From Candidatus Latescibacterota bacterium (lineage in GTDB: Bacteria; Latescibacterota; UBA2968; UBA8231), in the NCBI GenBank assembly GCA_965248265.1, contig CBDFJF010000002.1, forward strand, positions 1,920,001 to 1,984,000: a DNA stretch of 64,000 nt, given 5' to 3'. The notes below the pieces were generated by a model. That model ran no database searches and had not been told where the DNA came from. It saw nothing but the letters and a program-made list of their open reading frames with translations. Position numbers and translations under genes: made by a program. Every line of letters starts with the position of its first letter. Position 1 is the first letter of the stretch. Positions 19 through 60,396 of the stretch are shown in pieces.

Positions 19-915
19 GTGGCTGAACTGACCGATCAATACAGCCTCGAGCCGGTGCCAGAAGGCATCGCCGCCTGCGTCGAGGCACTGCGCGCCGGCG
101 CGGGGAACCTCGGCCACGACCCGTCCGCGATCGTCCTCTTCAGGTACGACGGCGGAGAGGTCACAGCTGTCGACCTGATCGTCGCGGCCAGAGGTCGCAA
201 GGGTACCGTCCTGGAGTCATTCCGAGACCCTGAGCAGGTGGTCTCCTTTGCCGAGGAGAACATCATCCCGGACAAGATGATTCAGGAGGCGGCCGTGCGC
301 CTGGGCATCGATCGTGAAGAGGCTATGGTTCAATGGCTCGAACAGCACGGGAAGCAGACATTGGCTGAAGCTCTCAGGTCCTCCGTGTTGAGGGAGAAAG
401 TGAATATAACCGAAGACGACCTGCGCCAGTACTACGAGGCCAACTCTCATCGACTACTGCATCCCGAACAAACAGAAGTACAGGAGATCCTGGTGGGTAC
501 GGAAGCAGAAGCCCTGCGCTTGAAAGGGATGATCGAAGATGGCGCCACGTTCGGTGACCTGGCGAAGGGACATTCTATCCGGTCGCTGGAGGTGCGTGAT
601 GACGAAGGCGTATTCCACGTGCACCGCCACGAATCGCCCCGGTTCGGCGGTTTCGTGGAAGCTACTGTAGAGGCCGAAATCGGCGCGCTCATCGGACCGG
701 TCAAGGTGCAAGAGGGCTACTCCCTCTTCAAGGTGCTGTCCCGGGAACGCAAGCGCGAGACCTTCGACGAGGCTGAGATGAGGGTCAGGTCCGAATTGAC
801 ACGCAAGAGACGCCGCGACGCGTTCAACGAGTCCATGGAAGAGCTGCGCAGCCGCTACGAGTCAGAGGTGGCGATTCACGAGGACAGGCTCGAAGCTGCG
901 TTTACCGTGCAGTAG
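19..915 (+). CDS. Parvulin/PpiC-type peptidyl-prolyl isomerase (SurA/PrsA-like), probably 5'-truncated by the window edge
   Basis: Rotamase motifs 'VQEILV...EAEALRLK...GATFGDLAKGHS' and 'GPVKVQEGYSLFKV'; the frame is open to the window start. Confidence 0.8.
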   Translation: MAELTDQYSLEPVPEGIAACVEALRAGAGNLGHDPSAIVLFRYDGGEVTAVDLIVAARGRKGTVLESFRDPEQVVSFAEENIIPDKMIQEAAVRLGIDREEAMVQWLEQHGKQTLAEALRSSVLREKVNITEDDLRQYYEANSHRLLHPEQTEVQEILVGTEAEALRLKGMIEDGATFGDLAKGHSIRSLEVRDDEGVFHVHRHESPRFGGFVEATVEAEIGALIGPVKVQEGYSLFKVLSRERKRETFDEAEMRVRSELTRKRRRDAFNESMEELRSRYESEVAIHEDRLEAAFTVQ

Positions 916-931
916 GGGCGATTCCCCTTCC
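895..931 (+). repeat. Direct repeat copy 1 (GCKGCRTTTACCGTGCAGTRGGGGCGATTCC)
   Basis: 33/37 identical to 11648-11684; contains the PPIase stop on + and a GIAPTAR* end on -. Confidence 0.9.
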
Positions 932-1148
932 TGGAAACGGGCTCGCAAGCGTCCATCGACCGGCTCGCAGGCCCTGATCCACCCCCAATGCACACGCCCA
1001 TCGTGACCTGCACCCATCCCGCCGCTCACCACCCCTCTCGACACGATTCCGCCGCCGACCTAGAGTAATCATAATTGCGGTTATCGGTCTATACATAAGC
1101 ACAGCGTCAATCCACACATCCAAGTCCTCACCTTCGCTGGAGTCTACA

Positions 1149-2651
1149 ATGTCTAGGTTGTTCTTGCGCAGATTTATGACCGCCATTTGTGTGGTTAACT
1201 GCGTCTGTCTTGTATCCATTGCCGCCGAGCCGGTGGACATCGGCTCGCACCGCGAGCTATTCGTCGATGACCATTTTGTCGAGAGGATCGAGGGCGATGC
1301 GCGGCTTGAATTGCAGCGGCCGGTGCCGCGGGATGTGGCGCTGGTCGCCGACGCGCCGTGGGAGGGAAACACCAGTATGTACTACACGCTGTTTCGTGAC
1401 AAAGATGCTTCCGGCGAGGACATCTGCCGCATGTACTACCGCGGCGCGAACTACGACCTGGAGAAGCGCACCGGGACGCACAACCAGGTGGTCTGCTATG
1501 CCGAGAGCAAGGACGCCATCCACTGGACGAAGCCGAATCTGGGGCTAGTCGAATTCGAGGGCTCGAAAGAGAACAACATTGTGTGGGACGGTGCCGGCGC
1601 CCACTGCTTTGCTCCCTTCAAGGACACCAATCCGAACTGCCCACCCGGGTCCCGCTACAAGGCACTCTCGCAGGTCCACAAGAGCGGCAGGCCCCATCAT
1701 GGGGTGCAAGGCGAAATGACCGTCTTCGCCTACAAGTCGCCCGACGGCCTCCGGTGGACGATCAGCGACGGCCCGCTGATCACCAAGGGGGACTTCGATT
1801 CGCAGAACCTGGCCTTCTGGGATCCGCATGCCGGACTATACCGCGAATACCACCGCGTCCGCTTTTTTCAAGATCCAAGCGGAGAGCTTGTCTTGGGCGG
1901 CATACGCGCTCGTCCGGGATTCCGGTCCATCATGACCTCCACGTCGAGCGACTTTTTGAATTGGGTGACCTGGACCGAGCCGGAGCTGCTGGAATTCGAC
2001 GATGACATCGGCCCGGAGCACCTGTACACGAACGCGGTGATGTCGTACCCCCGTGCGCCGCAGATCCTGATCGGCTTCCCCACCCGACTGCTTCCCGAGC
2101 AGAACAACCGCGTGGAGCCGATCCTGATGACCAGCCGCGACGGACGCAGGTTCAAGCGGTGGCCCGACCCGGTGATTCCCGAGGACGCGCCGGAGGAACG
2201 GGCCGGCAACCGCAGCAACTACATGGCCTGGGGGCTCCTGCCCACCCCGGGCAACGACCGCGAGTACTCGGTTTACGCCTCCGAAAACTACCTCTCCACG
2301 ACCCCCACCCGGCTACGGCGTTTCACGTACCGCCTCGACGGATTCGTGGCGCTGCGCGGCGGCGCGGATGGCGGCCAGCTCACCACGAGGCCGCTGTTGG
2401 TGGGCGGCGGGAAGCTGGAGATCAACTATGTGACCCGGCCCGGCGGCCACGTGCGGGTGGGGATCGAGGACGCCGACGGCCAGCCGCTGGCCAACTTTTC
2501 AGCCGCAGACTGCGACCCGCTCGAGGGCGACCAGATCGCAAAGCTCGTCACCTGGAAGAGTGATGGGCAGGGTCCGTTTCCCGGAAGGCCAGTGCGGGTG
2601 CGGTTTGAGGTCAAAGACGCGGAGGTGTATTCGTTTCGGTTCAAGAATTGA
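1149..2651 (+). CDS. Secreted beta-propeller glycoside hydrolase-like protein (GH32/43/130-like fold)
   Basis: Signal peptide; 'RELFVDD', 'CYAESKDAIHWTKPNLG', 'FDSQNLAFWD', 'RLDGFVAL', C-terminal 'YSFRF'. Confidence 0.7.
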   Translation: MSRLFLRRFMTAICVVNCVCLVSIAAEPVDIGSHRELFVDDHFVERIEGDARLELQRPVPRDVALVADAPWEGNTSMYYTLFRDKDASGEDICRMYYRGANYDLEKRTGTHNQVVCYAESKDAIHWTKPNLGLVEFEGSKENNIVWDGAGAHCFAPFKDTNPNCPPGSRYKALSQVHKSGRPHHGVQGEMTVFAYKSPDGLRWTISDGPLITKGDFDSQNLAFWDPHAGLYREYHRVRFFQDPSGELVLGGIRARPGFRSIMTSTSSDFLNWVTWTEPELLEFDDDIGPEHLYTNAVMSYPRAPQILIGFPTRLLPEQNNRVEPILMTSRDGRRFKRWPDPVIPEDAPEERAGNRSNYMAWGLLPTPGNDREYSVYASENYLSTTPTRLRRFTYRLDGFVALRGGADGGQLTTRPLLVGGGKLEINYVTRPGGHVRVGIEDADGQPLANFSAADCDPLEGDQIAKLVTWKSDGQGPFPGRPVRVRFEVKDAEVYSFRFKN

Positions 2652-2773
2652 GCGAGGTTTCTTGAAAGGGTACAGCGCCGCCTGCGTGGCCGCCCTTGCC
2701 CGGGCGCGCCGAGCGGCGATTCTTGAAAGGCACGGCAGATTCCCGACGCACCGTCCGAAAGGAGATAGCTCAC

Positions 2774-4813
2774 ATGAAGAAGGCAATGCTTGTCATTGTG
2801 GCGGTGCTTGTAGTAGCGCTCGCTATGCTGTTTTCCTGCGGCCAGAAAGAGAGCCACACACCCACCGGCGAGCAGGACGCGGCGGGGACCGAGGTGTCCA
2901 CTGCGGTGTCCACCAACGAGCTCGGAAAGGTCGTGAACAAGAGCTACGAGTTCGTGGATCCCAGGACCGGGGATGCGGGAACGGTCGAGATCGAGCGCTT
3001 TCAGGCTTCTCCCGTGTGGAAGGAAATGGTCGAGGCCGGCAAGCTCCCACCCATAGACGAGCGATTGCCTGAAGAGCCCCTGGTCATCAAGCCGATCGAG
3101 AGCATCGGCAAGTACGGCGGCTGGATGGTAAATCTGAGAACCGCCCAGCGCCGTTCCTGGTCAAGAGGCTTGCAGTATGAGTGGCTGGTCAATTGGACCT
3201 ATCCCTACTTCGAGCGCCTGAACCCCAACGTGGCCAAGGGTTGGGAAGTCTCGCCGGACGCGCGAAAGGTGACTTTCTTCCTGCGCAAAGGCATGAAGTG
3301 GAGCGACGGAACGCCCTTCACCGCCGACGCGATCACCTGGTGGTTCGACCACATCGTCCTCAACGACGAGCTCTACCCAACCAAACCGGGGCGTTTCCTG
3401 ACCAGAGGGAACCTGCCCACCGTCCGCAAGCTCAATGAAACCACGGTCGAGTTCGCGTTCACGGATCCCTACCCGATGTTCGTGGAGAACATGGCCCGGT
3501 GCCGGCCCATGTCGTACGCACCCGGACATTATCTAGAAGAGTTCCATCCCGACTTTGCCGGGAAGGAAGACATAGAGAAGATGATGGTGGAAGGCGGCTT
3601 CGACATCTGGGCCGACTTCTTCCGCAGCAAGTGGGACTTCTACAGCAATCCCGATATGCCCACCATCAGCGGCTGGAAGGCGATCAACTACCAGGAGGAA
3701 GTGATCTTCAAGGTCGAGCGCAATCCCTACTACTGGAAGGTCGACACCGAGGGTAAGCAGCTGCCCTACGCAGACGGCATGGAATACGCTTTGGTGCAAA
3801 ACGCCGAGACATGGCTCTTGCAACTGATGGCGGGTGAGCTCACCTGGGCTTTCGGCAGCTCAATTGGCGGATTGGCCAACCTGCCGCTCGTGATGCAGAA
3901 CCAGGAAAGGGGCAACTACCGGATCGTGACCCCATATTGGCCCCCCAACAACGTCTGCACCACGTACTTCAATTTCGCCAATGCTGATCCCGCAAAGAGG
4001 AAGATCATCAACGACCGGAAGTTCCGTCTCGCCCTGCTCAAGGCCATCAACTGGGAGGAGGTGAACGAGATCATTTACGACGGCGGCGCCCTGCCGACGT
4101 GGCCGCGATCGGTGGCGCCGTACGATCCGGATAGTCCTCTGTTCCAGACCCACATCGGCCGGGACATCAGCGAGGCCAATCGGCTACTGGATGAGATGGG
4201 TCTGACGGCCAAGGACAGCGACGGCTTCCGGCTAGGCCCGGACGGGAACGAGCTCATCTTCGTGACGGTTACCATGACCAACTCGCCCCCAGAGGCCGCC
4301 GAGGTCGCTGAGCTCTATCGCGGGTACTGGGGGGAAGTGGGCATCAGGACCGTGGTCAAGTCGCAGAGCCCCCAGTTCGTCACGGAGATGATGCAGGCGG
4401 GTGAGTACGATCTTCACCTGCGCTGGGGGGCCCCGGGCGGGCGTCCCATGAACGTCTTCACTCGCGGGCAGTTGCTTCCCATCAATGCTTGGTGGTTGGT
4501 TTGCCCCCCGTGGGGCGAGTGGACGTCCAGCGGGGGCAAGAAAGGTGAGGAGCCGCCGGAGTACGTCAAGCGGCTCCACGCGATCTACGAAGAAGGCATG
4601 GTCGAGCCGTCGGAGGCGAAGCGCAAGGATCTCGTCATGGAAGCATTTGAGATTTACGTTGACCATCTCCTGATGCTTCCGGGATTCGAAGCGAAGCGAG
4701 CCACGTACACCGCGGTGACGAAATCGCTGCGGAACTTCAGTGTGGGCGACGAGCCGTATGGGACAACGGAGTTCGCCATTGTTCCCTCGCAGACCTTCTA
4801 TTTCGACGACTAG
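2774..4813 (+). CDS. ABC transporter substrate-binding lipoprotein, family 5 (likely oligosaccharide-binding)
   Basis: Lipobox-like LFSC; 'GKLPPIDERLPEEP', 'LRKGMKWSDGTPFTAD', 'RNPYYWKVDTEGKQLPY'; RBS GGAG before ATG 2774. Confidence 0.9.
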   Translation: MKKAMLVIVAVLVVALAMLFSCGQKESHTPTGEQDAAGTEVSTAVSTNELGKVVNKSYEFVDPRTGDAGTVEIERFQASPVWKEMVEAGKLPPIDERLPEEPLVIKPIESIGKYGGWMVNLRTAQRRSWSRGLQYEWLVNWTYPYFERLNPNVAKGWEVSPDARKVTFFLRKGMKWSDGTPFTADAITWWFDHIVLNDELYPTKPGRFLTRGNLPTVRKLNETTVEFAFTDPYPMFVENMARCRPMSYAPGHYLEEFHPDFAGKEDIEKMMVEGGFDIWADFFRSKWDFYSNPDMPTISGWKAINYQEEVIFKVERNPYYWKVDTEGKQLPYADGMEYALVQNAETWLLQLMAGELTWAFGSSIGGLANLPLVMQNQERGNYRIVTPYWPPNNVCTTYFNFANADPAKRKIINDRKFRLALLKAINWEEVNEIIYDGGALPTWPRSVAPYDPDSPLFQTHIGRDISEANRLLDEMGLTAKDSDGFRLGPDGNELIFVTVTMTNSPPEAAEVAELYRGYWGEVGIRTVVKSQSPQFVTEMMQAGEYDLHLRWGAPGGRPMNVFTRGQLLPINAWWLVCPPWGEWTSSGGKKGEEPPEYVKRLHAIYEEGMVEPSEAKRKDLVMEAFEIYVDHLLMLPGFEAKRATYTAVTKSLRNFSVGDEPYGTTEFAIVPSQTFYFDD

Positions 4814-4831
4814 ACGGGGACAGCCTTTGTC

Positions 4832-5818
4832 ATGTTACGCTTCATAGGCCGTCGTTTGCTCCTGATGGTGCCCACGCTGATCGCCATCTCCATGCTCTCG
4901 TTCCTCATCATCCAGCTTCCACCCGGTGACTATCTTTCCTTTTACGTGGCCAATCTATCTCAGCAAGGGGAGGAAATAGACGAAGCTGAATTGGAGGCCA
5001 TCAAAGCCCGTTATGGCCTCGATCAACCCATGCCGCTGCAGTACCTGACATGGCTGTGGGGATTCATCCGCGGAGACATGGGCAGGTCGATGCAGTGGGG
5101 AGCGCCAGTGGAGAGCCTCATCGCCGACCGACTCCCCATGAGCATGGCCATCTCGCTTGCCTCGTTGATATTCGTCTACCTCGTGGCCATACCCATCGGG
5201 ACGTATTCCGCGACTCATCAGTACTCAATTGGCGACTACGTCTTCACGACGGTCGGTTTCATCGGATTGGCCATTCCGAACTTCTTCCTGGCGCTGGTTC
5301 TGCTCTACTACTACTACGTGGCCACTGGAGACGTCCTGGTGGGATTCTTCTCCAGAGCCTACCAGGATGCGCCGTGGAGCTTCGCCAGGCTGTGGGACAT
5401 GATGAAGCACCTGTGGCTGCCCACTGTGGTGGTAGGCACCGCCGGTACCTGCGGCCTCATTCGTGTGATGCGGGCCAATCTGCTCGACGAACTGCAGAAG
5501 CCGTACGTCATGGTCGCTCGGTCCAAAGGGCTTTCGAGACGACGCGTGCTGTACAAGTATCCCTTCCGCATGGCGATCAATCCCATGATCAGTACCATCG
5601 GGTGGATGCTCCCCACCCTGTTCGGGGGCGAGCTCCTCGTGTCGATGGTGCTCAACATTCCCACGATTTCTCCGTTGTTCGTGGGCGCGCTTCTGAGCCA
5701 GGATATGTTCCTCGCCGGATCAATCGTGATGATCGTCAGCTCGTTGACGGTGATCGGGACGCTCATATCCGATATCGCCCTGGGGTGGGTGGACCCCCGT
5801 ATCCGGGAGGCCGTGTAG
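4832..5818 (+). CDS. ABC permease, DppB/OppB-like
   Basis: 'RRLLLMVPTL', EAA-loop region 'ARSKGLS', end 'DPRIR'. Confidence 0.92.
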   Translation: MLRFIGRRLLLMVPTLIAISMLSFLIIQLPPGDYLSFYVANLSQQGEEIDEAELEAIKARYGLDQPMPLQYLTWLWGFIRGDMGRSMQWGAPVESLIADRLPMSMAISLASLIFVYLVAIPIGTYSATHQYSIGDYVFTTVGFIGLAIPNFFLALVLLYYYYVATGDVLVGFFSRAYQDAPWSFARLWDMMKHLWLPTVVVGTAGTCGLIRVMRANLLDELQKPYVMVARSKGLSRRRVLYKYPFRMAINPMISTIGWMLPTLFGGELLVSMVLNIPTISPLFVGALLSQDMFLAGSIVMIVSSLTVIGTLISDIALGWVDPRIREAV

Positions 5819-5819
5819 G

Positions 5820-6932
5820 GTGAAGGGGAAGAAGAATACAACTGGGGATCGCCTGCTGGTCGCTTCGCAATGGCAGCTCATTCGCTGGAAGTTCTTCCGG
5901 CACAAGCTCGCCGTGGGAGCGCTTGTTGTTCTTGGTTTCCTCTATTTCGGGGCCATCTTCGCAGAGTTCGTGGCGCCCATGGATCCGACACAGATCAATG
6001 CCAGGCGCAAGCTCTGCCCGCAGACGAAGATCCACTTCAGTGACGAGAATGGCCTACACCTGCGGCCGTTTGTCTATGGTCTCACCCACACCAAGGATCC
6101 CGAGACGTTGCTGAGGACCTACTCCGAGGACAAGAGTGTCACCTATCGGATACGTTTTTTCGTTTCCTCCTCGGAGTACAAGCTGTGGGGCCTGTTCCGG
6201 AGCAACATCCATCTCTTCGGGGTTGAAGAAGGCGGTGAACTCTTCTTGTTGGGAACGGACCTGTATGGTCGGGACCTGTTTTCCCGCATCATCTACGGTT
6301 CCAGAATATCGCTATCCATAGGGCTCGTCGGCATCGCCGTCAGCTTCGTCCTCGGGGTGTTGATCGGCGGCGTCTCCGGCTACGTCGGCGGAACCGTGGA
6401 CGTGGTGATTCAACGCGTCATCGAGTTCATCAAGTCCATTCCGACCCTGCCGTTGTGGATGGGGCTGAGTGTAGCTCTCCCGCCACACTGGTCCATGATC
6501 AAGGTCTATTTCGGTATCGTGATCATTCTTTCTCTGATCGGGTGGCCGGATCTTGCCCGGGTGGTGCGCGGCAAGTTCATGGCCCTGCGGGAAGAGGATT
6601 TCGTCATGGCTGCTCGATTGCACGGAGCAGGGCAGCTCAAGATCATCCTGAAACACATGCTGCCTTCATTCTACAGCCACATCATCGCCTCGTTGACTCT
6701 CTCGGTGCCAGGGATGATTCTGGGTGAGAGCGCGTTGAGTTTCATAGGCCTGGGGCTGCAGGCGCCGGCCATAAGTTGGGGGGTGCTTCTGCAACAGGGG
6801 CAGGCTATCCGGGTATTGGCAAACGCGCCTTGGCTCATGCTCCCGGGGTTGTGGATCATCGTAACGATCATGGCGTTCAATTTCGTCGGCGACGGGTTGC
6901 GGGATGCGGCCGACCCGTATGCCACGGTGTGA
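5820..6932 (+). CDS. ABC permease, DppC/OppC-like
   Basis: 'LGTDLYGRDLFSRIIYGSRISL', 'FNFVGDGLRDAADP'. Confidence 0.92.
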   Translation: MKGKKNTTGDRLLVASQWQLIRWKFFRHKLAVGALVVLGFLYFGAIFAEFVAPMDPTQINARRKLCPQTKIHFSDENGLHLRPFVYGLTHTKDPETLLRTYSEDKSVTYRIRFFVSSSEYKLWGLFRSNIHLFGVEEGGELFLLGTDLYGRDLFSRIIYGSRISLSIGLVGIAVSFVLGVLIGGVSGYVGGTVDVVIQRVIEFIKSIPTLPLWMGLSVALPPHWSMIKVYFGIVIILSLIGWPDLARVVRGKFMALREEDFVMAARLHGAGQLKIILKHMLPSFYSHIIASLTLSVPGMILGESALSFIGLGLQAPAISWGVLLQQGQAIRVLANAPWLMLPGLWIIVTIMAFNFVGDGLRDAADPYATV

Positions 6933-6943
6933 GGAATTTCGAT

Positions 6944-7948
6944 ATGCGCTGCCAAGGGGATGATCATTTACTCAGAGTTGTCAACCTGGGGACCCATTTC
7001 TTCTCCCGGGAAGGGACTGTCCGGGCTGTAGATGGCGTGGACTTCGCACTCAGACGAGGACAGACCCTGGGCATCGTCGGTGAGAGTGGGTGTGGCAAGA
7101 GCGTTACGGCGCAGTCCATTCTGCGGATCGTGCCAAAGAACGGCGAGATCGTCACTGGACAGATACTTCTGAAGACGGCAGACGAGGTCGTGGATCTGGC
7201 GCAGCTCGATCCCGAAGGGGATGAGATTCGCGCCATCCAGGGCAAGGAAGTCGCCATGATCTTCCAGGAGCCCATGACATCGTTTTGCCCGGTGTACACC
7301 ATCGGCAATCAGATTACCGAAGTGATCCAGCTTCATCAGGAGGCCACAAAGGGCGAGGCTCACGAGCGGGCCCTGGACATACTACGTCAGGTCAGTATGC
7401 CCAATCCTGAACAGGCCATCGATGCCTATCCCTTCAATCTCAGTGGCGGCATGCGCCAGAGAGCCATGATCGCCATGGCGTTATCGTGCCGTCCCAGCCT
7501 GCTCATCGCCGACGAACCCACCACAGCCGTGGATGTCACGATTCAGGCCCAAGTGCTCGATCTGATTTCCAAACTCCAGCGGGAGCTGGGCATGGCTGTC
7601 ATCCTCATAACCCACGATCTGGGAGTCGTCGGTGACCTGGCAGATGAGGTGTTGGTCATGTATCTGGGAAGAAACGTGGAGTGCGCCGAGGCCCGCCAGC
7701 TCTTCCGCGATCCCAAGCACCCCTACACCCAGGGGCTCCTGGCATCCATACCCAAGCTCGGTGAAGGCGGGCGCAAGATAGAGCCTATTTCCGGTTCGGT
7801 GCCGAGCGTCTACGAGATGCCGAAAGGATGCAGATTTCATCCCCGTTGCCCCGAGTTCATCAGTGGTGTGTGCGACGAGCGGGAGCCGCCCTCTGTGGAG
7901 ACGGAGCCGCGTCACTTTGTGAGTTGCTGGCTCTACGCGGACAGGTAG
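6944..7948 (+). CDS. ABC ATPase, DppD/OppD-like
   Basis: Walker [26 protein letters not shown]-terminal 'GCRFHPRC'. Confidence 0.93.
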
Positions 7949-7954
7949 GATGGT

Positions 7955-8983
7955 ATGAACAACAGAGTCCTTCTTCGAGTAGAGGATCTAAAGAAGCACT
8001 TCGTTCGAACGCACGGCCTGCGGAGAAAGGTAACGGGGATAGTGAAGGCCGTCGACGGCGTCAGCCTCCACATACGCTCAGGGGAGACCCTCGCTCTGGT
8101 GGGGGAAAGCGGTAGCGGCAAGACCACCCTGGGCCGATCGGTGCTGCGGGCGATAGAGCCGACATCCGATTCCATTACCTATCACCTGAAAGACGACGAG
8201 CCCATCGATTTCATGGCTCTGGACATGACAGAATTGAAGGAGATACGCCGGCACCTGTCCATGGTATTTCAGGATCCTTACTCCTCCCTCAACCCTCGGA
8301 TGAGTGTGCTGGACATCGTGGGGGAACCCCTCATCAATTACGGTGTGATGAGGCGCAAGGAGCAGATCCAGGAACGAGTAGCCGAGCTCCTGCGCATGGT
8401 CCGATTGGACCCGGAGTACATGGGCAGATATCCCCACGCCTTCAGCGGCGGACAACGCCAGAGAATCGCGATTGCTCGTGCCCTGTCGTTGGATCCGCAA
8501 TTCATCGTGCTCGACGAGCCGGTTTCGGCCCTCGATGTGTCGGTGCAGGCCCAAGTGCTGAATCTGCTCAAGGAGCTCCAGGACGAGCTCAACCTGACGT
8601 ATCTGTTCATCGCGCACGATCTCGCCGCGATCGAGTACGTGAGCAGCCGCGTGGCGGTAATGTATGTTGGCCGGATCGTGGAGATGTCGGCGACCGAGGA
8701 AGTCTTCAGAAGTCCCCGTCACCCATATACGGAAGCGCTCTTGTCCGCCGTTCCGAAAGGGGATCCGGACAACAGAAGCGAGCGGATTGTCCTGGAAGGT
8801 GATGTGGCCGACCCCGCCAATCCGCCGTCGGGCTGCTACTTCCATCCTCGGTGCCGCTATGCCGAGGCCATTTGCCGAGAGCGCACGCCGCCGCTGATTG
8901 ATGTGGGCGCCCCGCACGAGGCCGAGCATTTGGCAGCGTGTCATTTCGCCGAAGAGCTCAAGCTGGCCGGCGTTGGTGGGTGA
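7955..8983 (+). CDS. ABC ATPase, DppF/OppF-like
   Basis: [25 protein letters not shown], 'GCYFHPRC'. Confidence 0.93.
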
Positions 8984-8984: not shown

Positions 8985-9016
8985 GCGGCGTTTACCGTGC
9001 AGTGGGGGCGATTCCG
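8985..9016 (+). repeat. Direct repeat copy 2
   Basis: 31/32 identical to 11648-11679; begins 2 bp after the ABC ATPase stop. Confidence 0.9.
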
Positions 9017-9367
9017 GCGCCGATCTGAACCGTTTATGGGCCCATTTTTCTCGCGACTACTGTGAACTCTAAAGTGACCTTTCTCACCTGACCAACGCCA
9101 TCTTGCGCGTTTCGATGAATTCCTTTCCCGCCTGTAGCCGATATACATACACGCCAGCGAATCGGCTGAAATCCATGCCTCGCACGCCTCCTCACGCACC
9201 CACGACAGCTATCGTACCCAATCCACACGGGAAAACAGCGCCTCGACAGGCCAGCGTCGGTTCACCATAGTCACGATAATACCTTTTATCTTTCCTATAT
9301 TCTGTTGGTCTTTCTCATCCTTCATCCTTTTCTTTTGATGGTAGATTTATAAATAGATCAGGCGAAG

Positions 9368-11545
9368 ATGGACTCAATTCCATTACTCGGTTACACGGAC
9401 AGGCTGTCCGGGCGTCCTGGTCATACCATAGAGTTTAAGGTAAGCAGCTATGCGGATGAGCCCTACCATGCCAGCCTGGTTCGTATTATTTCCGCAGATC
9501 CCAATCCAGCCGGACCGGGTTTAATCGAAGAACACATAGACATTGCATTCGGCGGCATGTTCCCTTCTCGTCCACAGGCCTTTTATCCGGGATCCTACGC
9601 CTCTATCGAGGTCGGGACCATGTTCGAATCCCTCCGTAGTTTCACCATTGTAGCGACCATATGGTCCACCACGCCGGATAAAAGCGTCCAGGGCGTTATC
9701 AGCTGTGGGGATGTATTGAACCTGGGTATAGATGAACGGGGATGCGTGACCGTCACTTGCCAGGGAGCGGTTCAAAGCACCGGTGAAGCGGTTAAAACCC
9801 GCCGCTGGTACCATATTTGGACGACATATGATGTAGCATCTAATAGGTTATCCGTAGGACAGCAGGCGCTCGCCCATCCGTTTGAGAAAACGCAATCCAC
9901 CAGGAAGCTCGATGAGCCGATCCATCTGCAGCAAGTCAGACAGGTTCTAATTGCCGCATTCCATGGTGAACCGGTTCAAAATCATTTCAACGGTAAAATC
10001 GAATCCCCGATGATCTTTGATCGAACCCTGTCTGAAGCCGAGATCACAGATGTAAACGCTCAGAAATCCGATGACTTGCAAGCCCACTGGGATTTTTCTG
10101 CCGGCATCAGTTCCACAAGAATTGAAGACGTTGGACCGCATCACAAACACGGTCGGTTGATCAATATGCCGGCCAGAGCCATGACCGGCTCCACATGGAC
10201 CGGCGAGGAGATGTGCTGGCAACACGCGCCGGAGCAATACGCAGCCATCCATTTTCACGAGGATGATATCTATGACTTCGACTGGGAAACGGATTTCACG
10301 TTTACCATTCCGGACGGTTTAAAACCGGGTGTTTATGCCGCTCGACTTCGTTGTGGATCGTATGAAGACTCTTTACCGTTTTTTGTGTGCCCGCCTAAAG
10401 GAAAACCTACGGCAGATCTCTGCGTCCTGGTCTCAACGTTTACCTATACCATATACGGCAACCATGCGCGTCCCAATTTTGAACCGAGCTGGCTCGACCG
10501 TATTCGAGACTGGAACGCGTATCCCTGGAACCCGGCAGTATACCCGCGTTACGGGTGTTCCACCTATAACCACCATTCCGACGGCAGCGGCATCTGCCAC
10601 GCCTCCCATAAGCGACCGCTGTTCAATCTCAGACCAGGGTATATTACCTTTGGTAACGCAGAAGGCGCATGCTCCGGTTTACGCCATTTTCAGGCGGACA
10701 GCCATTTGATCACCTGGCTTGAAAAAAAGGGTATTGCATACGACATTGTGACCGATCAAGAATTGCATGAGGACGGCATCGATGCCATCAAGGACTACAA
10801 GGCCGTCACCACTGGGTCTCATCCGGAATACCACACCCCGCAAACCCTGGATGCGTTGCAACAATATCGGGAACAGGGCGGGAATTTCCTGTATCTTGGT
10901 GGTAATGGATTCTACTGGCGTATTGCCGTGCATCCGGAACACAACGGTACCCTTGAAATCCGTCGAGGCGAAGGCGGCATCCGGGCCTGGGCCGCAGAAC
11001 CGGGCGAATATTTTCAGGCGTTTGACGGTGCCTATGGTGGTCTGTGGCGAAGAAACAACCGACCCCCTCAAAAACTGGCCGCCGTTGGTTTTTCGGCACA
11101 GGGTAATTTCTATGGTTCCTACTATAGACCCAATCCGGATGCCATGAAAACCCCCGAAACGGCATGGATCTTTGAAGGCATACAGGATGAGAAGCTGGGC
11201 GACTTCGGGTTCAGCGGTAACGGCGCGGCCGGCTTCGAACTCGACCGGGTCGACTATCGCCTCGGTTCTCCCGAAGATGTGCATATTTTGGCCAGCTCCG
11301 AAAACCACCACGAGTCGTTTATCCTGGTGCCCGAAGAACTGCTCACTCATCTCACCACCTGGCCCGGTGAAGAGATCGATGATTTAATCAGAGCGGATAT
11401 GGTGTATCAAAAGTCAGACCATGGCGGACAGTTGTTTGCCACGGGATCTATTACATTTTGTGGGAGTTTGCCTTATAGGGATGGGGATAATAATATCTCG
11501 CGGTTGCTTGGGAATGTGATGGAACGATTTTTGGGGAATAGCTGA
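9368..11545 (+). CDS. N,N-dimethylformamidase large (beta) subunit family protein
   Basis: N-terminal 'GYTDRLSGRPG', LamG-like segment, 'TFTYTIYGN', 'GSHPEYHT', 'YLGGNGFYW', 'AAGFELD'; visibly more AT-rich than its flanks. Confidence 0.85.
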   Translation: MDSIPLLGYTDRLSGRPGHTIEFKVSSYADEPYHASLVRIISADPNPAGPGLIEEHIDIAFGGMFPSRPQAFYPGSYASIEVGTMFESLRSFTIVATIWSTTPDKSVQGVISCGDVLNLGIDERGCVTVTCQGAVQSTGEAVKTRRWYHIWTTYDVASNRLSVGQQALAHPFEKTQSTRKLDEPIHLQQVRQVLIAAFHGEPVQNHFNGKIESPMIFDRTLSEAEITDVNAQKSDDLQAHWDFSAGISSTRIEDVGPHHKHGRLINMPARAMTGSTWTGEEMCWQHAPEQYAAIHFHEDDIYDFDWETDFTFTIPDGLKPGVYAARLRCGSYEDSLPFFVCPPKGKPTADLCVLVSTFTYTIYGNHARPNFEPSWLDRIRDWNAYPWNPAVYPRYGCSTYNHHSDGSGICHASHKRPLFNLRPGYITFGNAEGACSGLRHFQADSHLITWLEKKGIAYDIVTDQELHEDGIDAIKDYKAVTTGSHPEYHTPQTLDALQQYREQGGNFLYLGGNGFYWRIAVHPEHNGTLEIRRGEGGIRAWAAEPGEYFQAFDGAYGGLWRRNNRPPQKLAAVGFSAQGNFYGSYYRPNPDAMKTPETAWIFEGIQDEKLGDFGFSGNGAAGFELDRVDYRLGSPEDVHILASSENHHESFILVPEELLTHLTTWPGEEIDDLIRADMVYQKSDHGGQLFATGSITFCGSLPYRDGDNNISRLLGNVMERFLGNS

Positions 11546-11647
11546 GGTTATGGATGTACCGATTCTGACATGCTTTGCCTTCTTAGACCATGGTATGTTG
11601 TTACTTTCTTTAGCTACTGCTTATCGTGCCTAACCGTCACTCCAGGC

Positions 11648-11684
11648 GCGGCATTTACCGTGCAGTGGGGGCGATTCCGCTTCC
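11648..11684 (+). repeat. Direct repeat copy 3 (3' end of the CRTAC1-like gene)
   Basis: Encodes GSGIAPTAR* on the - strand. Confidence 0.9.
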
Positions 11685-14970: not shown

Positions 14971-15328
14971 ATGGCAGGCTGCTCCCTTGACGCGCGCTCC
15001 GGGGGTGGAGCTGGGGAGCTCTGTTTTGCCCCAATAGGCCACCGCAACGACGCGCGCATCGAGAGCGAGGGCAATTACGACAAGCAGGAGTTTGGAGAAA
15101 ATGATACCATTGAGGCACGGCTGGTTGCGCGAGGGTCGTGACGCTGCTGAACACGTATATGCGTTACATAATGTATGAAGGTATCCAATTGTCGGGGGAG
15201 GAACAAGATTCAGGCGGGATGCGGTTCGACTACCGCTTCTGTGTTGAAATGCCTATTCTCCGCAATGCGCACCGGTGACAGGCACCTTTCAGGTTGATTT
15301 TGTTGGCGTCAAAAGAGTGAGACAAGCG

Positions 15329-17971: not shown

Positions 17972-18131
17972 GCTCAGGCGTTTCGTTTTGGTGCGCAGCG
18001 GTCGAGGGCGCACCAAAGCAGGTTATTTGTGATTACCCGCTAGGCAGCAGGAAGTTGCGTGGATCATGCCAAGCCGCACGGATCTGCCAAGCTTTCGTTC
18101 TAGCACATTGGGACTCCTGGAGGGCCAGGCG

Positions 18132-34832: not shown

Positions 34833-34848
34833 GTCAGGTGCACGACCG

Positions 34849-40309: not shown

Positions 40310-40444
40310 GCCGATCGCCAGCCCGATTGTGAGCGTGACGCCTGGTGCCTGAAACTTCAATGGTGTCTCGATGAATGACAGGCCGAGAGTCAGGCCGAAC
40401 CAGACTAGAGTCGTTGCGACCAATGCCACTCCCAGCATCATCAC
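40310..40444 (-). pseudogene. 5' fragment of a DUF4149-like membrane protein
   Basis: 'GLSFIETPLKFQAPGVTLTIGLAIG', then family similarity is lost. Confidence 0.55.
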
Positions 40445-40456
40445 GCTCCGTCGTTT

Positions 40457-42442: not shown

Positions 42443-42779
42443 GCAACCCAACCTCTGCGCAATGCGAGCCTCGAGTACAAGATCAGAAACGCCTCCATAG
42501 CCAGCGGCACCAGCGCGATGTGAGCCGCCAGTGGTTGAACAATGCAATGCGCTGACGATTTCCGCAATCGTTGGTGCCAGATCGCGGTCTGAGTGGGGGC
42601 GATGCTGAGGCTCGAGGCCGGTCCTGTGCCACGCACATATCCGTGCCTATCCCGCCGCTCAGGCGAACCCGATCTCATCTCGACATCTCGCCCCGACCGA
42701 TCTACACTACCTAATAGCAGACTTTGTGCCCTGTGCTACCCTCAGTGCTACGAATGTCCCCCCAGCCCCGGAGCACGCC

Positions 42780-43295
42780 ATGCCTACTCACACCGGCGCA
42801 GTCGCAACAACCGGAGCCCTGCTGGTGATGGCAGCCACTTTCGCCACCTGCGGCTCGAGCGATAGCCCCACCGAGCCAGTCGCCAACTCCTGCTCCACCA
42901 CCATCCCACCTCAACCCGGGTTTCAGCCCCCAGAGCCCTGGCCGGTCACTCACCCGAACGAGGGGAGAGTCTGGTACGGTACCGGGGATCTCTGGACGTC
43001 GCTGGCCACCGACGGCAACCATGACTGGGGCAAGAGCGTGTGGTGGAGCGTCCACTTCGGCGGGGGGGCCATCGAGCCAGACCCCGAAATCGGTGTGGTA
43101 TGGCGCCGCCTCGACGATGGCTCGGCGTTGGTCATAGAAGAACAAGCCCCCGGAACCAACGCCTTCACCGAGGACCACGGCTGGGCCATGTTGAACGGGA
43201 TTGATCCCGACGAATCGGGATGCTGGGAGGTGACGGCCACTTACAGGGGCGCCACTCTCAGCTACGTCTATGAGTACACGGCTGACGACTCATGA
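42780..43295 (+). CDS. Hypothetical lipoprotein
   Basis: Hydrophobic leader with ATC; C-terminal 'GCWEVTATYRG'; stop overlaps the next ATG. Confidence 0.55.
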   Translation: MPTHTGAVATTGALLVMAATFATCGSSDSPTEPVANSCSTTIPPQPGFQPPEPWPVTHPNEGRVWYGTGDLWTSLATDGNHDWGKSVWWSVHFGGGAIEPDPEIGVVWRRLDDGSALVIEEQAPGTNAFTEDHGWAMLNGIDPDESGCWEVTATYRGATLSYVYEYTADDS

Positions 43296-55695: not shown

Positions 55696-56379
55696 CCACG
55701 ACGCATTTGCCGGCCAATCACCTCGTTTAGAGCCTTTGCACCCAAACGGGCAATCTTTTCAACTATTGGCCCCGCAGCCTTAACTCCTTCCAGCACAATG
55801 ACCATCGCGCACCACCCCAAAGTATAGCGGTTCGCATATCCGAGTATTCTCGGGCATTCCGTGACGGGCGCATACACGGCGATCCCAATAATCGGGACGC
55901 GTTTGGCCTGTATTACCTGGATATGTGGCGGGACAGATAACAAAGTATCCTCGCCACGCCCCCCTCCGTACTTCTACGGAGTACTGCAGAAACAGAAAAC
56001 GCCCGGACCATGTTCTGCGGTCTCGGGCGATTGTTCATGCGTCGACTCCTGTTCAACAGTGAAGCGAAAGGCGTTACAGCGTACTCATCTTGCGGATCTC
56101 AACTCGCTGCTGCGGCCTGGAGCCTGTAGGGGAAGATTGTAGCCCATCTGCTTGGGTGAATCAACCCGCAAAGCCAGCACAGGCGGCTCAAGCAATCGCG
56201 GCGCCTTCCAGCGGTGTGGCCGCCGAGCTGGCAATCTGCTCGTGGTATCCTCCTCGCCCAGCTTGCCCTGGGCTTTGCCGCGGGCGCAAGCCTTGTTATT
56301 GCGGTCTGGGCCATGGTTTCGTAGCCTGCTTTCGGCAGATTAGAGTCGTCACGAACGGCCAGCGAGTGATATGGCGAGA

Positions 56380-57128
56380 ATGAAGAGACGTGGTGCCCTC
56401 AGCCTTCTACTACTGTGTGGGATGGCTGCAGCCGAGCCTGGCGACAGTCCACCCACTATCCTGTTCTTCGGGGACAGCTTGACGGCGGGCTACGGCGTCG
56501 AGAAGACGCAGGCCTATCCGGCCCTGATTCAGGGTCGCATCGATTCGCTCGGTTGGGACTTCCGCGTGGTCAACGCCGGATTGGACGGCGAGACTACCGC
56601 TGCGGGTCTGCGGCGCTTAGACTGGATCCTGCGGCGACCGGTGGATGTGTTCGTACTCGAGCTGGGGGGCAACGACGGGTTGCGGGGGTTGCCGTTGGCG
56701 CAGACGGAGACGAACCTGCAGCAGATCCTCGATCGCGTCCTGAAGAAGAGTGCCGACACCGAGCTGGTGATAGCCGGGATGCAGCTGCCCCCCAATCTGG
56801 GCCCCGACTACACGTCACAGTTCCGCGCCATCTTCCCACGCCTTGCGACACGCAACAAAGCCGCTCTGATCCCATTCCTGCTGGAGGGTGTAGGGGGGTG
56901 GACGGGCTCATGCTGCCCGACGGCATCCACCCCAACCCGGCGGGACACCGACGCGTTGCTGACGTCGTGTGGGCGGCGCTGGAACCGGTGCTGCAGCGTC
57001 TTCGTGCCACCAGCGCTGACTCACTCGGCGCGGCGCAGGACCTCGAGGGGCGGCGCGGCCTGGATGCCGCGGCTGCTGGTGAGTCCGACCAGCACGGTGA
57101 TGAGGGGGATGGCGACACCGGCCAGTAG
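56380..57128 (+). pseudogene. tesA: TesA-like SGNH/GDSL arylesterase with a 1-nt frameshift in a G run
   Basis: GDSL, NAG, LGGND in one frame; catalytic 'PDGIHPN' in another; break at GTAGGGGGGTGGAC (about 56893-56898). Confidence 0.8.
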
Positions 57129-59567
57129 CAACGCCGGCCACGACGGGGCGAAGGTGATCTCGAACACGAACCGCGCAAGGGCCCAGCCGCCACCGAGCGC
57201 CAGCAGCAACCCGGCAAGTCCGGCGAGACTTCCCAGCAGCAGGTATTCCACCAGCAGAATGCGTCCCACCTGACGTCGGCTGGCGCCCAGAGTCCGCAGC
57301 AGGGCGCTCTCGCGCAGGCGCTGGAAACGACTGCCGGCGATCACGGCGACGAGGACGCACAGGCCGGTGCCCACACTGAACACGGATACCAGGCGCACGA
57401 CGACGGACACCTTGTCGAGCACCTGGTCCACTGTCCGCAGCACGAGATCGAGGTCGATGACGGAGACGTTCGGGAACTGACGCACCGTCCGTCGCTGCAA
57501 CGCGGCCCGTGTCTGGCCGTCGTCGGCACGGGTGACCAGAACATGAAACTGCGGGGCCTGCTCGAGCGCCCCTGCCGGGAAGACGACGAGGAAATTGGGC
57601 ATGATGCGTTGCCAGTCGACGGTGCGCAGGCTGCCGACGACGACGTCGATGGGCACACCCTCGACATCGAAAACCAGAGAATCCCCGATGCCGACGTCGA
57701 GGGCAGCAGCCACACCGACTTCCAATGATACTAACACCGTGTCCGCGACCACGCCGCGCCACTGGCCTTCGGCGATCTGCTCGGTTTCCGTCGTATGGTC
57801 GCGATAAGTGGAGCGGTACTGGCGTCGCAGGGCCCAGCTTCCTCGACGCTTCTTTCCGATAATGTCATCGACAGCAACGCCCTTCACCCGGGCCACGCGC
57901 ATCGGTACGACCGGTACCTGCTGGATGACCGGCATATTCATACTAGCCACCAGTTCGGCGACCGCTTCACTCTGATCAACCTGGATGTCGAACAGGACCA
58001 TATTGGGCTGGTCGCCCCCGCTGACGCTGTTGATGTGAGCGATGATGGAGCTCTGCGCCGTGTAGAGGGTGATGACGAGGAACGTTCCCAGGCCGAGGCT
58101 GACGAGCAGCAGGAGCGTCTGGTTGTGTGGCCGGTAGAGATTGGCCAGCCCCTGACGCCACAGATAGCTCCATCCGGTCGGGAAGAAACGCCGCGCGCCG
58201 GCACGCAGCAGCCGGGCGGCGCCGGTGAGCAGGCACATGGCCAGCAGCGTGCCGCCGGTGAAGTAGAAGGCATGGTCGGACCGGCCGGTGAGGACGTGGG
58301 CCAGCAGGTAGGTCCCTCCGCCGGCGAGCAGGGCCAGCAGCACGCGCAGGAGGAGATCACCGCGGTGCGTGCCGCTCTCGTAATCAGCGCGCAGCGCCAG
58401 CAGCGGTGAGACGCGGCGCACGGCCAGCAACGGCAGGGAGGCGAACAGCAGAGAGATGGCCGCGCCCACTCCCACGCCTTCGACGACCGACAGGGGTGAC
58501 AGCACGGCCTGCACGTCCCCGAGTTGTTGTGGCAGGAAGTCGGCGAGCAACCCGGGCAGCCACCAGACGAAGCTGAGCCCCGCGAGGGCGCCGGCAAGCG
58601 AACCGCTGACCCCCATGGCAGCGGCCTGGACCAGGTAGATGAGCAGGGTCTGGCGCGCGATGGCGCCGAGGCTGCGCAGGATGGCGACGGTCTCCAGCTT
58701 CTGCTGTACGTGAGCATGCACGGCGCTGGCCACGCCCACGGCACCCAGGAGTAGGGCAACGAAGCTGCCGAGGCCGAGGAAGCGGTAGAGGTTGCCCAGC
58801 GTCCGGCCGAGGCGGCGCTTGCGGTCGGCGATGGTGTCGGCGTCAGCACCCAGGCTATCGAGACGGGCGTCCAGCGATGAGGCCAGCTCATCGACGTCAC
58901 GGCCGTCCTCGAACTGGAAATACACCTTGTATTCGACAATGCTGCCGGCCTGGATCAGGCGCGTCTGTTCGATGGTGCGATAGGGAATGAAGACGACGGG
59001 CCTCACGTCAGTGCGCAGCGCGGTCTCTCCAGGCAGGTGCAGCAGACGTCCACCGATGCGGACATCTAATTGCCCGACGCGCAGGGTGTCGCCGACCTGG
59101 GCGCCGAACTGTAGCATCAGGCCATCATCGACGAGCGCCTCGCCGTCTTGCGACCAGGTGCGTGCCGCGGCCGCCGGGTCCGTGCCAAGCTCGCCGTAGA
59201 AGGGGAAGCCGCCTTCGAGTGCACGCACCTGAGCGAGCCTGGTACCACCGCTGGCCGGGAAGGCGATCATGGAAAGGAGCTCCACCATGCGCGCCTGCCG
59301 GCCAGCGAGCGAATCGATGAGTGCCAGCGTTTCCGCCTTGAAGGGCTCGCGGCTCTCGATCTCCATGTCGGCCCCCAGCAGGGTCGCGGCATGCTCGTCG
59401 ACAGCGTGTTCCATCGTCCGCGACAGTCCGCGCAGGCCGGTGAGGGCGGCGATGCCGACGGCGATGGCACTGGTGTAGAGCAACAGCCGCCACCGCCGCC
59501 CGCGGCTGTCGCGCCAGGCCATGCGCAGGGGCCATGGTATCAGGGCCGGCATCAGGGCACGCGGCAT
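57021..59567 (-). CDS. ybbP: YbbP-like FtsX/MacB-family ABC permease
   Basis: 'MAWRDSR', 'LLGAD', 'FPFYG', 'LFDIQ', 'SLRTVDW...PNF', 'LRTLGA'. Confidence 0.85.
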   Translation of the reverse strand: MPRALMPALIPWPLRMAWRDSRGRRWRLLLYTSAIAVGIAALTGLRGLSRTMEHAVDEHAATLLGADMEIESREPFKAETLALIDSLAGRQARMVELLSMIAFPASGGTRLAQVRALEGGFPFYGELGTDPAAAARTWSQDGEALVDDGLMLQFGAQVGDTLRVGQLDVRIGGRLLHLPGETALRTDVRPVVFIPYRTIEQTRLIQAGSIVEYKVYFQFEDGRDVDELASSLDARLDSLGADADTIADRKRRLGRTLGNLYRFLGLGSFVALLLGAVGVASAVHAHVQQKLETVAILRSLGAIARQTLLIYLVQAAAMGVSGSLAGALAGLSFVWWLPGLLADFLPQQLGDVQAVLSPLSVVEGVGVGAAISLLFASLPLLAVRRVSPLLALRADYESGTHRGDLLLRVLLALLAGGGTYLLAHVLTGRSDHAFYFTGGTLLAMCLLTGAARLLRAGARRFFPTGWSYLWRQGLANLYRPHNQTLLLLVSLGLGTFLVITLYTAQSSIIAHINSVSGGDQPNMVLFDIQVDQSEAVAELVASMNMPVIQQVPVVPMRVARVKGVAVDDIIGKKRRGSWALRRQYRSTYRDHTTETEQIAEGQWRGVVADTVLVSLEVGVAAALDVGIGDSLVFDVEGVPIDVVVGSLRTVDWQRIMPNFLVVFPAGALEQAPQFHVLVTRADDGQTRAALQRRTVRQFPNVSVIDLDLVLRTVDQVLDKVSVVVRLVSVFSVGTGLCVLVAVIAGSRFQRLRESALLRTLGASRRQVGRILLVEYLLLGSLAGLAGLLLALGGGWALARFVFEITFAPSWPALLLAGVAIPLITVLVGLTSSRGIQAAPPLEVLRRAE

Positions 59568-59584
59568 CAGGACTGGGTGTCCTC
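59497..59584. repeat. Direct repeat copy A of the ATPase-stop/permease-start junction
   Basis: Matches 60294-60396 apart from one 15-bp unit and a few substitutions. Confidence 0.9.
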
Positions 59585-59645
59585 AGCGGCGGGTTCTACT
59601 GCCAGCAGGTATCGGGCCCGTCGTATGGTGTCGCCCAACGCGGCA

Positions 59646-60022
59646 CTAGTGCAGCGAGAGAGGTACATGCTGGCTCAACTGCGAGAAATGCTTGTCGCGC
59701 GACAGGACTCCAGGCCATTGTGCATTGCGTGTTGAGCGATGATCAGGTCGGGCATCCCAACCTTGTTGATCCCGTTGCGCAGACAGGTGATCTGTAGTTG
59801 GACGATATCGTCCCAATCGATGTTGACAGGACGTCTATCTATCTCCTTCAGAAGACTGATCAGCCGTCGCTGACGACGCATGTGAAGAGCGGGGAGGAGT
59901 TCGGCGAGAATCAGGTCATTGACAACGACCAGGTTCTCATCAATCAGGTGATTCAACTCGCTCCCACGCCCCTTGCCGCGGAAGTACTCGATCCAGACTG
60001 AGCTATCGACAAGCACGCTCAT
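59646..60022 (-). pseudogene. vapC: VapC PIN toxin with a 1-nt deletion near 59710
   Basis: 'LVDSSVWI', 'LAELL', 'PDLIIA'; the conserved 'SRDKHF' tail is in a shifted frame ending at TAG 59646-59648. Confidence 0.8.
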
Positions 60023-60213
60023 CCACGTTTCCTCAACGTGTCCAGATCCATATCCAGATCCACCTTCCCCCTATACTGCTTCAGCTTCTGTATCCGTCCC
60101 TTCCGCACGAAATCCTCAAGGGCTGCGATGATTACGGCTGTCTTGGTGCGCTGGTGAGACAACTTCATGGCCTCGGTGATCAGAGGCTCGGGCAGGTCCA
60201 GTGTCGTTCTCAT
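60019..60213 (-). CDS. vapB: VapB antitoxin
   Basis: 'MRTTLDLPEPLITEAM...TKTAVI..AL...G.VDLD.DLD.LR'; overlaps the vapC start. Confidence 0.88.
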   Translation of the reverse strand: MRTTLDLPEPLITEAMKLSHQRTKTAVIIAALEDFVRKGRIQKLKQYRGKVDLDMDLDTLRKRG

Positions 60214-60226
60214 GCTATTCTCCCAT

Positions 60227-60263
60227 GCATATATTATAGCGAGTGTATGCATATAATATATGC
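60227..60263 (-). promoter_or_regulatory. vapBC operator/promoter
   Basis: Perfect 12-bp inverted repeat GCATATATTATA/TATAATATATGC containing TATAAT. Confidence 0.75.
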
Positions 60264-60293
60264 CTTTCTGGCCGTATTAGTCCATAGCGTCTT

Positions 60294-60396
60294 CGCCCAC
60301 GGCTGTCGCGCCAGGCCATGCGCAGGGACCATGGTATCAGGGCCGGCATCAGGACCCCCGGCATCAGGACCGATGGCATCAGGACTGTGTGTCCTC
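60294..60396. repeat. Direct repeat copy B (true ATPase stop plus permease 5' stub)
   Basis: Stub MPSVLMPGVLMPALIPWSLRMAWRDSRGR; three GGCATCAGG units at 15-bp period. Confidence 0.9.

Follow-up and report, generated by a model that had tools for sequence, protein, structure and literature searches.

Diverged gene-end duplications around accessory genes in a Latescibacterota genome: candidate scars of homology-anchored single-crossover insertion

In Escherichia coli, 56 of 60 selected clones carried a duplication of 109-950 bp of the lacZ end, attributed to a recA-dependent single crossover after recircularisation of a non-replicating molecule, and only 4 of 60 were products of homology-facilitated illegitimate recombination (HFIR), in which insertion is coupled with deletion (PMC3240628). 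ISCR1 units sit between two partial copies of the 3′ conserved segment (3′-CS) and have their variable region downstream of oriIS; Toleman et al. model them through a circular intermediate that homologous recombination rescues (PMC7707992, PMC3575428 and PMC6218425). In the loci of type VI secretion systems (T6SS), 3′ ends are left stranded (PMC5361080). Here we describe a 64,000-nucleotide stretch from a Candidatus Latescibacterota bacterium (hereafter the window; contig CBDFJF010000002.1, G000:C2:1920001-1984000), in which four sets of diverged direct repeats, made of gene ends, enclose accessory genes. The host genome, G000, comprises 7.32 Mb in two contigs (C1 and C2) with a G+C content of about 60%; the best named relatives are metagenome-assembled genomes of Candidatus Latescibacterota.

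The coordinates of the four loci are collected in Table 1. An earlier note, made from the letters of the window alone, had reported four repeat sets with cargo between the copies; all of them were located where it had put them, with accessory genes between the copies at each. The alignments also bore out its description of the repeats as unrelated in sequence between loci, variable in length and diverged between copies. At all four loci the similarity stops sharply at both repeat ends in pairwise alignments. In short-word BLAST against the whole genome each repeat matches only itself and its local partner or partners, so these are not dispersed repeats; the sole further match is 23 nt of the locus 2 repeat on the other contig. 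The rule that one copy is dead and the other belongs to an intact gene holds for loci 2, 3 and 4 but not for locus 1, where only the middle copy is dead and the outer copies each hold the stop codon of an intact gene, the two genes being convergent. The repeats of locus 4 are extended by extra 15-nt units, up to 59584 and 60396. The short fixed-length target duplication and terminal inverted repeats that mark a transposon are absent; instead, the anchor is partially duplicated on both sides of the unit at loci 1-4. Repeats of 37-210 nt, variable in length and diverged, agree with the earlier view that these are not target-site duplications of insertion sequences (IS). What the loci do display is a feature expected of a Campbell-type event, namely a direct repeat that equals a homologous segment and ends sharply in similarity on both sides.

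We propose that the stubs are scars of homology-anchored single-crossover (Campbell-type) insertion, a reading that we consider moderately probable. An incoming DNA molecule would carry accessory genes together with a short piece (37-200 bp) homologous to a resident gene end, and one homologous crossover inside that piece would integrate the molecule and thereby duplicate the piece. One copy would remain joined to the intact gene, and the other would be stranded beyond the cargo. Insertions that break the gene would be lost, so that only pieces containing a terminus would survive. The copies would begin as alleles of two lineages, hence their substitution differences. IS91/ISCR rolling-circle elements, of which the genome has many, probably produced some of the circles, as modelled for ISCR1-linked complex class 1 integrons, and the remaining cases may stem from recircularised fragments or one-sided recombination. 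Observed directly are the anatomy, its recurrence and direction bias across the genome, the ISCR relics of locus 1, the empty sites of loci 1 and 4 in relatives and the allele-like substitutions of 3′ stubs; a circular form of the incoming DNA, its crossover and its donors we infer. No joint skipping exactly from repeat to repeat was seen among the 15 of 26 contig joints listed, and contigs cannot show rare forms.

The pattern recurs throughout the genome. Self-BLAST of this one genome for repeats of 30-300 bp, 80-99.5% identical and no more than 15 kb apart, the kind of self-alignment that the earlier note had proposed, gave 106 direct against 8 inverted repeats. The direct pairs lying more than 150 nt apart number 103, and 83 of them are isolated, i.e. 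not part of longer paralogy. Of these isolated pairs, 23 have one copy overlapping a gene terminus (genes of at least 100 aa), and the order is terminus, cargo, second copy in 20 of these and the opposite in 3. A pair was called clean when its stub lay outside any large gene and its identity was below 97%; from the 20, four were dropped because the second copy lies in another large gene and three because their identity is 97% or higher (two IS91-related, one enclosing an IS110 gene), which leaves 13 clean pairs. The repeats described here range from 37 to 210 nt, with copies differing by 4-20%.

IS91-family transposases were mapped by tblastn, and ori-end profiles were built from the genome's own copies. 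The whole-length ori profile gave no window match at a genome-wide E<=1, and it was the subfamily profiles that gave the relics described here. Genome-wide, the ISCR relics merge into 149 loci, and full-length IS91-family transposase genes number at least 5. An ISCR relic lies inside the cargo in 6 of the 13 clean pairs, where 1.3 would be expected from random placement on the same contig and 2.3 within the relic-rich zone; six relic-bearing pairs were reached in 0/2000 and 23/2000 placements, respectively. By hand count, a relic lies within 300 nt of a copy in 3/13 clean pairs. Seven clean pairs, loci 2 and 4 among them, have neither a relic nor a neighbouring recombinase. As to distribution, about 110 of the 149 relic loci (ori ends or transposases) fall in the region of C2 from about 0.9 to 2.9 Mb, as do 9 of the 13 clean pairs; the rest are spread over the other 5.3 Mb.

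At locus 1, ISCR/IS91 relics accompany the repeats. Its 37-mer covers the overlapping stop codons of the convergent PPIase-domain and FG-GAP/ASPIC genes. The two ori-end relics follow repeat copies 1 and 2 at distances of 102 and 207 nt, each heading along the plus strand and pointing into a cargo block; a possible third ori-end fragment at 11617-11638 was not significant (E 1.3). The Opp-like transporter of the first block consists of SBP_bac_5, two permeases and two ATPases. The related genome G048 shows the empty site, with the two flanking genes directly adjoining. In G042 the same site is occupied by an ISCR relic that retains a transposase stump of 99 aa; behind it come the 500-aa gene and the Opp operon known from G000, and the homology of relic 1 to this fuller relic begins exactly at 931. 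The left junction of G042 differs, with only 13 nt repeated; there the PPIase gene ends in a new tail, its old one lying stranded next to the FG-GAP gene. Cargo 2, the DMFA2_C / Laminin_G_3 protein, is not at this site in G042. G016 has a different 5.2-kb insert here, with a right junction common with G042. Window positions 931-2658, covering the relic and the 500-aa gene, are 98.3% identical to L119:8279-10007 of G042, whereas the flanking genes of the two genomes are 89.7-90.4% and the Opp genes 92.7% identical. This difference in identity indicates a recent exchange between the G000 and G042 lineages, limited to this segment. We take ISCR as the likely origin of the circles for locus 1 and for a minority of the remaining pairs.

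Further evidence comes from the substitutions between copies. A duplication made in place, with a neutrally drifting stub, predicts a ratio of nonsynonymous to synonymous substitution rates (dN/dS) of at least 0.5. For the eight clean pairs at 3′ ends, the ratio was 0.23 (bootstrap 0.13-0.43; 0.5 or more in 0.6% of resamples), with 29/23/62 differences by codon position. The differences are thus mostly synonymous, and the 3′ stubs thus diverged as pieces of functional genes; stub and intact copy fit two functional alleles rather than an in-place duplication followed by decay. The five clean 5′-end pairs gave 0.72 (0.41-1.44; 0.5 or more in 86%; 10/12/14), and all 13 clean pairs together gave 0.30 (0.18-0.53; 0.5 or more in 4.1%; 39/35/76). 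The earlier suggestion that the copies are alleles of two lineages therefore stands for the 3′-end stubs genome-wide, the 5′ stubs being uninformative.

Table 1. Features of the four repeat loci and of the pair enclosing locus 4 (window positions unless a contig is named).
Locus	Feature	Position	Strand	Description
1	Direct repeats	895-931 / 8985-9021 / 11648-11684		37 nt; 84-89% to reference copy
1	Repeat copy 1	895-931		Holds stop codon 913-915 of intact PPIase-domain gene ending at 915 (+)
1	ISCR/IS91 ori-end relic 1	931-1131	+	Profile match 1033-1097, E 3.4e-9
1	Cargo 1	1149-8983	+	500-aa protein without known family; Opp-like ABC transporter
1	Repeat copy 2	8985-9021		Dead copy separating the two cargo blocks
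1	ISCR/IS91 ori-end relic 2	9228-9301	+	Profile E 7.6e-5
1	Cargo 2	9368-11545	+	DMFA2_C / Laminin_G_3 protein; G+C 0.51-0.54
1	Repeat copy 3	11648-11684		Holds stop codon of intact FG-GAP/ASPIC gene 11655-13409 (-)
2	Direct repeats	29623-29803 / 31134-31314		181 nt; 91% identity
2	Stub	29623-29803	-	Copy of gene X 3′ end; frame open, no indel
2	Cargo	29985-31053	-	Two paralogous small proteins, 178 and 185 aa; G+C 0.53
2	Full copy	31134-31314	-	Last 59 codons and ~10 nt downstream of gene X (31135-31560/31692)
3	Direct repeats	34842-34913 / 43285-43356		72 nt; 86% identity
3	Stub	34842-34913	+	7 nt upstream and first 22 codons of metallophosphoesterase/PQQ-propeller gene
3	Cargo operon	35003-42547	-	Five genes
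3	Truncated ISCR ori-end relic	42678-42713	+	Profile E 1e-4; found too at genome-wide E<=0.1
3	Open reading frame after relic	42726-43295		189 aa
3	Full copy	43285-43356	+	5′ end of intact gene 43292-45406
4	Direct repeats	59497-59573 / 60294-60370		77 nt; 94% identity
4	Full copy	59497-59584	-	Last 18 nt of ATPase gene copied; 5′ end of intact permease gene 57021-59567
4	Cargo	59585-60293	-	vapB (60019-60213/60252) and PIN-domain vapC (59675-60022)
4	Stub	60294-60396	-	Start of MacB-like permease; 54-codon dead frame
Larger pair	Stub	56066-56261		200 nt, 83.5% identity to partner
Larger pair	Partner	G000:C2:1985699-1985898		Outside window

For locus 4, relatives have the ATPase and permease genes adjacent to each other, forming the empty site. 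The stub and the stop of the ABC ATPase gene (60379-61059) overlap just as at those empty sites, and, judged against them, nothing is missing at this locus in G000. On the minus strand the order is ATPase gene, permease stub, vapB, vapC, the 18-nt copy of the ATPase end and the intact permease gene. The vapBC cassette has its own palindromic promoter region, and it was found in one of 75 other family genomes, in a different context. The frame of vapC breaks near its 3′ end, with the expected C-terminal residues continuing in another frame (59646-59816); an intact 132-aa VapC homologue is present in G049 (L029:371-769). All of locus 4 is itself enclosed in the larger pair of Table 1, which the earlier note had not reported, whose partner copy is the 3′ end of a 570-aa gene and downstream DNA and which spans 9.4 kb. 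The ABC cluster inside this pair and its counterpart in G042 share only 70-75% identity, compared with ~90% at locus 1. The genes in these 9.4 kb are a GDSL lipase, the MacB-type ABC genes with the nested vapBC, GDPD, a Gp49/HTH toxin-antitoxin pair, MarR, a CCP_MauG peroxidase and a luciferase-like gene.

At locus 2 the order is ECF sigma gene (32233-32718), a 194-aa open reading frame (ORF), gene X, the two small-protein genes, the stub and a convergent DUF1330 gene (29286-29621, +) that the stub abuts. Gene X, downstream of the sigma gene, has a weak NTF2-like match. The 194-aa ORF (31652-32236) is without a Pfam family and, judged by position only, may be the anti-sigma partner of the sigma factor. 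The two cargo proteins are 40% identical, with signal-peptide-like N-termini and no Pfam family. Among 75 metagenome loci, relatives of gene X never stand beside the sigma gene, the 194-aa ORF, DUF1330 or the cargo. An apparent partial copy of gene X in L032 was rejected, its sequence ending at the contig edge. At the protein level, extension of the stub upstream of the motif DE[KR]VHLAIRQ was not significant. The tetranucleotides GTTC/CTTG at the repeat start were disregarded as possibly fortuitous, since similarity may begin 9 nt further upstream.

At locus 3 the order is a 479-aa gene (33393-34832), the stub beginning 10 nt past its stop, the minus-strand operon, the 189-aa ORF and the intact metallophosphoesterase/PQQ gene, with an insert of 8.4 kb. 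The operon encodes a GFO_IDH_MocA oxidoreductase, a DegT aminotransferase, a ceramidase-like protein, a BNR protein and a DUF6785/DUF6784 membrane protein. DNA synteny across 40 family genomes recovered no ortholog context, the sequences being too diverged; a match in G004 was discarded, as it covers the 189-aa ORF only. None of G042, G016, G048 and G015 has a match at E<=1e-30 to the window stretch 27000-34900, which holds a flagellin gene, gene X, the 479-aa gene and the ECF sigma gene with its neighbour ORF; loci 2 and 3 thus have target genes that themselves lie in accessory DNA.

Several observations concern sequence beyond the four loci. At G000:C1:1106481-1116796 lies a 10-kb island (APH kinase, TonB receptor, hybrid histidine kinase), flanked by 172-nt repeats (92%) of the 3′ end of a response-regulator/kinase gene; a tyrosine recombinase gene directly behind the first repeat makes this a classical integrase-island layout. 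The same 80-nt tandem pair occurs at G000:C1:3172086-3172270, C2:2990-3174 and C2:4138656-4138840, near three of the four contig ends, where the assembly probably breaks at a shared multi-kb repeat. Within the window, 15275-17971, 18066-20132 and 24189-26834 (+) encode three paralogous large proteins (898, 688 and 881 aa) without a Pfam family; they are 61-89% identical in blocks at the nucleotide level, and several more copies exist in G042 and G016.

How else could such structures have formed? Classical HFIR, which the earlier note had put forward, would bring in linear DNA of a relative, acquired by transformation, by homologous pairing on one side and an illegitimate join on the other, the stub being the recipient allele if that join fell within the anchored region. 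The allele-like differences of the 3′ stubs fit this as well, and the left junction of locus 1, where 931 is joined to mid-relic, resembles, when set against G042, a homologous plus an illegitimate join with a 4.1-kb difference. ComEC, DprA and Ku genes are present, too; ComEC and DprA, however, also match in 10/14 control genomes, which leaves this check of competence genes uninformative and the argument with little weight. HFIR should yield an insertion together with a deletion of similar size, and what loci 2-4 show is duplication; in the same E. coli experiment, duplications of gene ends came from single crossovers of circles (PMC3240628). At locus 4, moreover, the donor would need vapBC within its own ATPase gene tail. 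The final structure fits HFIR and a single crossover alike; we regard HFIR as possible but rather unlikely. A long target duplication made in place, in which a staggered break or some unknown machine captures DNA, fill-in copies 37-200 bp and the stub decays, would account for the 5′-end stubs, with their lack of codon-position bias (10/12/14; dN/dS 0.72), for the shared boundaries of the locus 1 duplications and for loci 2 and 4, which bear no mobile-element trace; Ku is at hand. It is contradicted by the dN/dS of the 3′-end stubs, below the minimum of the model, and by the locus 2 stub, whose frame is open and free of indels at 9% divergence; nor was a motif or an associated gene seen to be shared between loci, and repeat length varies from 37 to 210 nt. 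We find it improbable.

The absence of a recombinase bears on a further alternative, i.e. islands that decayed after losing a site-specific integrase whose attP held a copy of the gene end. The island on C1, a clean pair with a tyrosine recombinase behind its repeat, is one example of such a layout in the genome. In the window, Pfam scans found no recombinase or transposase domain in the main ORFs of the cargo, and in 110 further stop-to-stop frames VapB was the only domain match, with no recombinase. No recombinase gene stands at the cargo edges, serine recombinases and DDE transposases being sought by ORF Pfam scans only. None of the genome's 18 tyrosine-recombinase matches falls inside the window, in keeping with the earlier statement that no single site-specific integrase is responsible. 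An IS91-family (Y2 HUH) transposase gave neither a tblastn match (E<=1e-3) nor a Pfam match in the window. The claim that no recombinase is involved thus survives for the domains of the cargo and for loci 2 and 4, which lack relics, and has to be given up for locus 1 with its ISCR/IS91 relics. Duplicated 5′ ends are untypical of integrase islands, and the cargo of locus 4 is 0.7 kb with vapBC only; we think this origin very improbable. Finally, the repeats could be chimeras of strains created by assembly. The genome was assembled from a metagenome with an estimated contamination of 4.4%, and false haplotype duplication would yield allele-like copies. In a check covering loci 2 and 3, Logan contigs assembled from 4 runs, all of one sample that may have been the assembly's own source, bridge the locus 2 stub, cargo and full copy (28601-31675, 27600-31675) and both junction regions of locus 3 (34129-40561; 42663-43594) without differences, and G042 independently has the relic and Opp layout of locus 1. 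An artefact, which the earlier note had named as what would overturn its finding, is exceedingly improbable.

A number of observations weigh against single-crossover insertion or against a part for ISCR in it. At loci 2 and 4, tblastn and the ori profiles found no ISCR relic or transposase trace. The relic of locus 3 is 572 nt from the repeat rather than adjacent to it; given a local density of ~1 relic per 18 kb, one would fall in an 8.4-kb cargo with a ~1-in-3 chance, and it could be there by chance. The clean pair C1:1106481/1116625, with its tyrosine recombinase beside the repeat, makes the set a mixed one. The dN/dS of the 5′-end stubs is uninformative on allele origin, and the window's three coding pairs alone are weak (0.41, 30 differences), so that the case for alleles comes chiefly from loci elsewhere in the genome. 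For loci 2 and 3 the searches yielded neither a donor genome nor an empty site in the same species. Both duplications of locus 1 have identical boundaries, which would require the second unit to have entered via the already duplicated 37-mer, an anchor close to the lower limit of ~30 bp for RecA-dependent crossover (quoted in PMC2884548). Moreover, transposition of ISCR has not been experimentally demonstrated (PMC6218425).

Taken together, the finding is real, recurrent and heterogeneous, and it is explained by known processes. Nothing here argues for the undescribed insertion mechanism that had been contemplated; the mechanism is not new. The stubs record the entry of operons without a dedicated integrase, marking the insertion point and preserving part of the other allele. 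Discussion of ISCR-linked duplications has so far concerned resistance plasmids; here the stubs link some of the traffic to ISCR-type elements in an uncultured environmental phylum. Their use is in annotation, such repeats being neither att sites nor assembly errors, and in a possible genome-wide count of such events. More speculatively, solo ISCR ori ends, transposases acting in trans and homologous recombination at gene-end anchors might together form a chromosome-wide system of cassette capture, which we judge unlikely. It would loosely resemble an integron without integrase and explain much of the gain of accessory operons in the 2-Mb plastic zone, and the relic-free loci would be older units with the relic lost.

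Compared with described systems, the loci share some features with each of them. HFIR, as known from Acinetobacter, S. pneumoniae and P. stutzeri, likewise imports DNA of relatives through one homologous anchor without a recombinase; its described products have deletions, not duplications (PMC3240628). Integrase islands in gene 3′ ends (attL/attR) are alike in lying between an intact gene end and a partial copy displaced from it, and differ from the window loci, where no integrase is in or beside the cargo. The E. coli single-crossover system, recA-dependent and free of a dedicated recombinase, gives the same direct duplication of a gene end around foreign DNA; it is a laboratory construct with identical homology, in contrast to the anchors of 37-210 nt here that have diverged by 4-20%. 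In the C-terminal displacement of rhs, contact-dependent inhibition (CDI) and T6SS loci, an incoming module also strands the old 3′ end downstream as an orphan (PMC5361080). The new end there is a different toxin tip and the orphan keeps its immunity gene, whereas here both copies have the same sequence; the G042 state of locus 1, with a new PPIase tail and the old one stranded, is closer to such displacement. As for the complex class 1 integrons of ISCR1, the anchors here are ordinary chromosomal gene ends and not 3′-CS, the cargo consists of metabolic or transport genes, the transposase gene is gone with an ori end of 65-200 nt left, and loci 2 and 4 have no ISCR trace. Their arrangement is nevertheless the same, with a partial anchor, the ISCR ori end, unrelated cargo and a second partial anchor, and no short target duplication; this order is present twice at locus 1, and G042 retains the transposase stump there.

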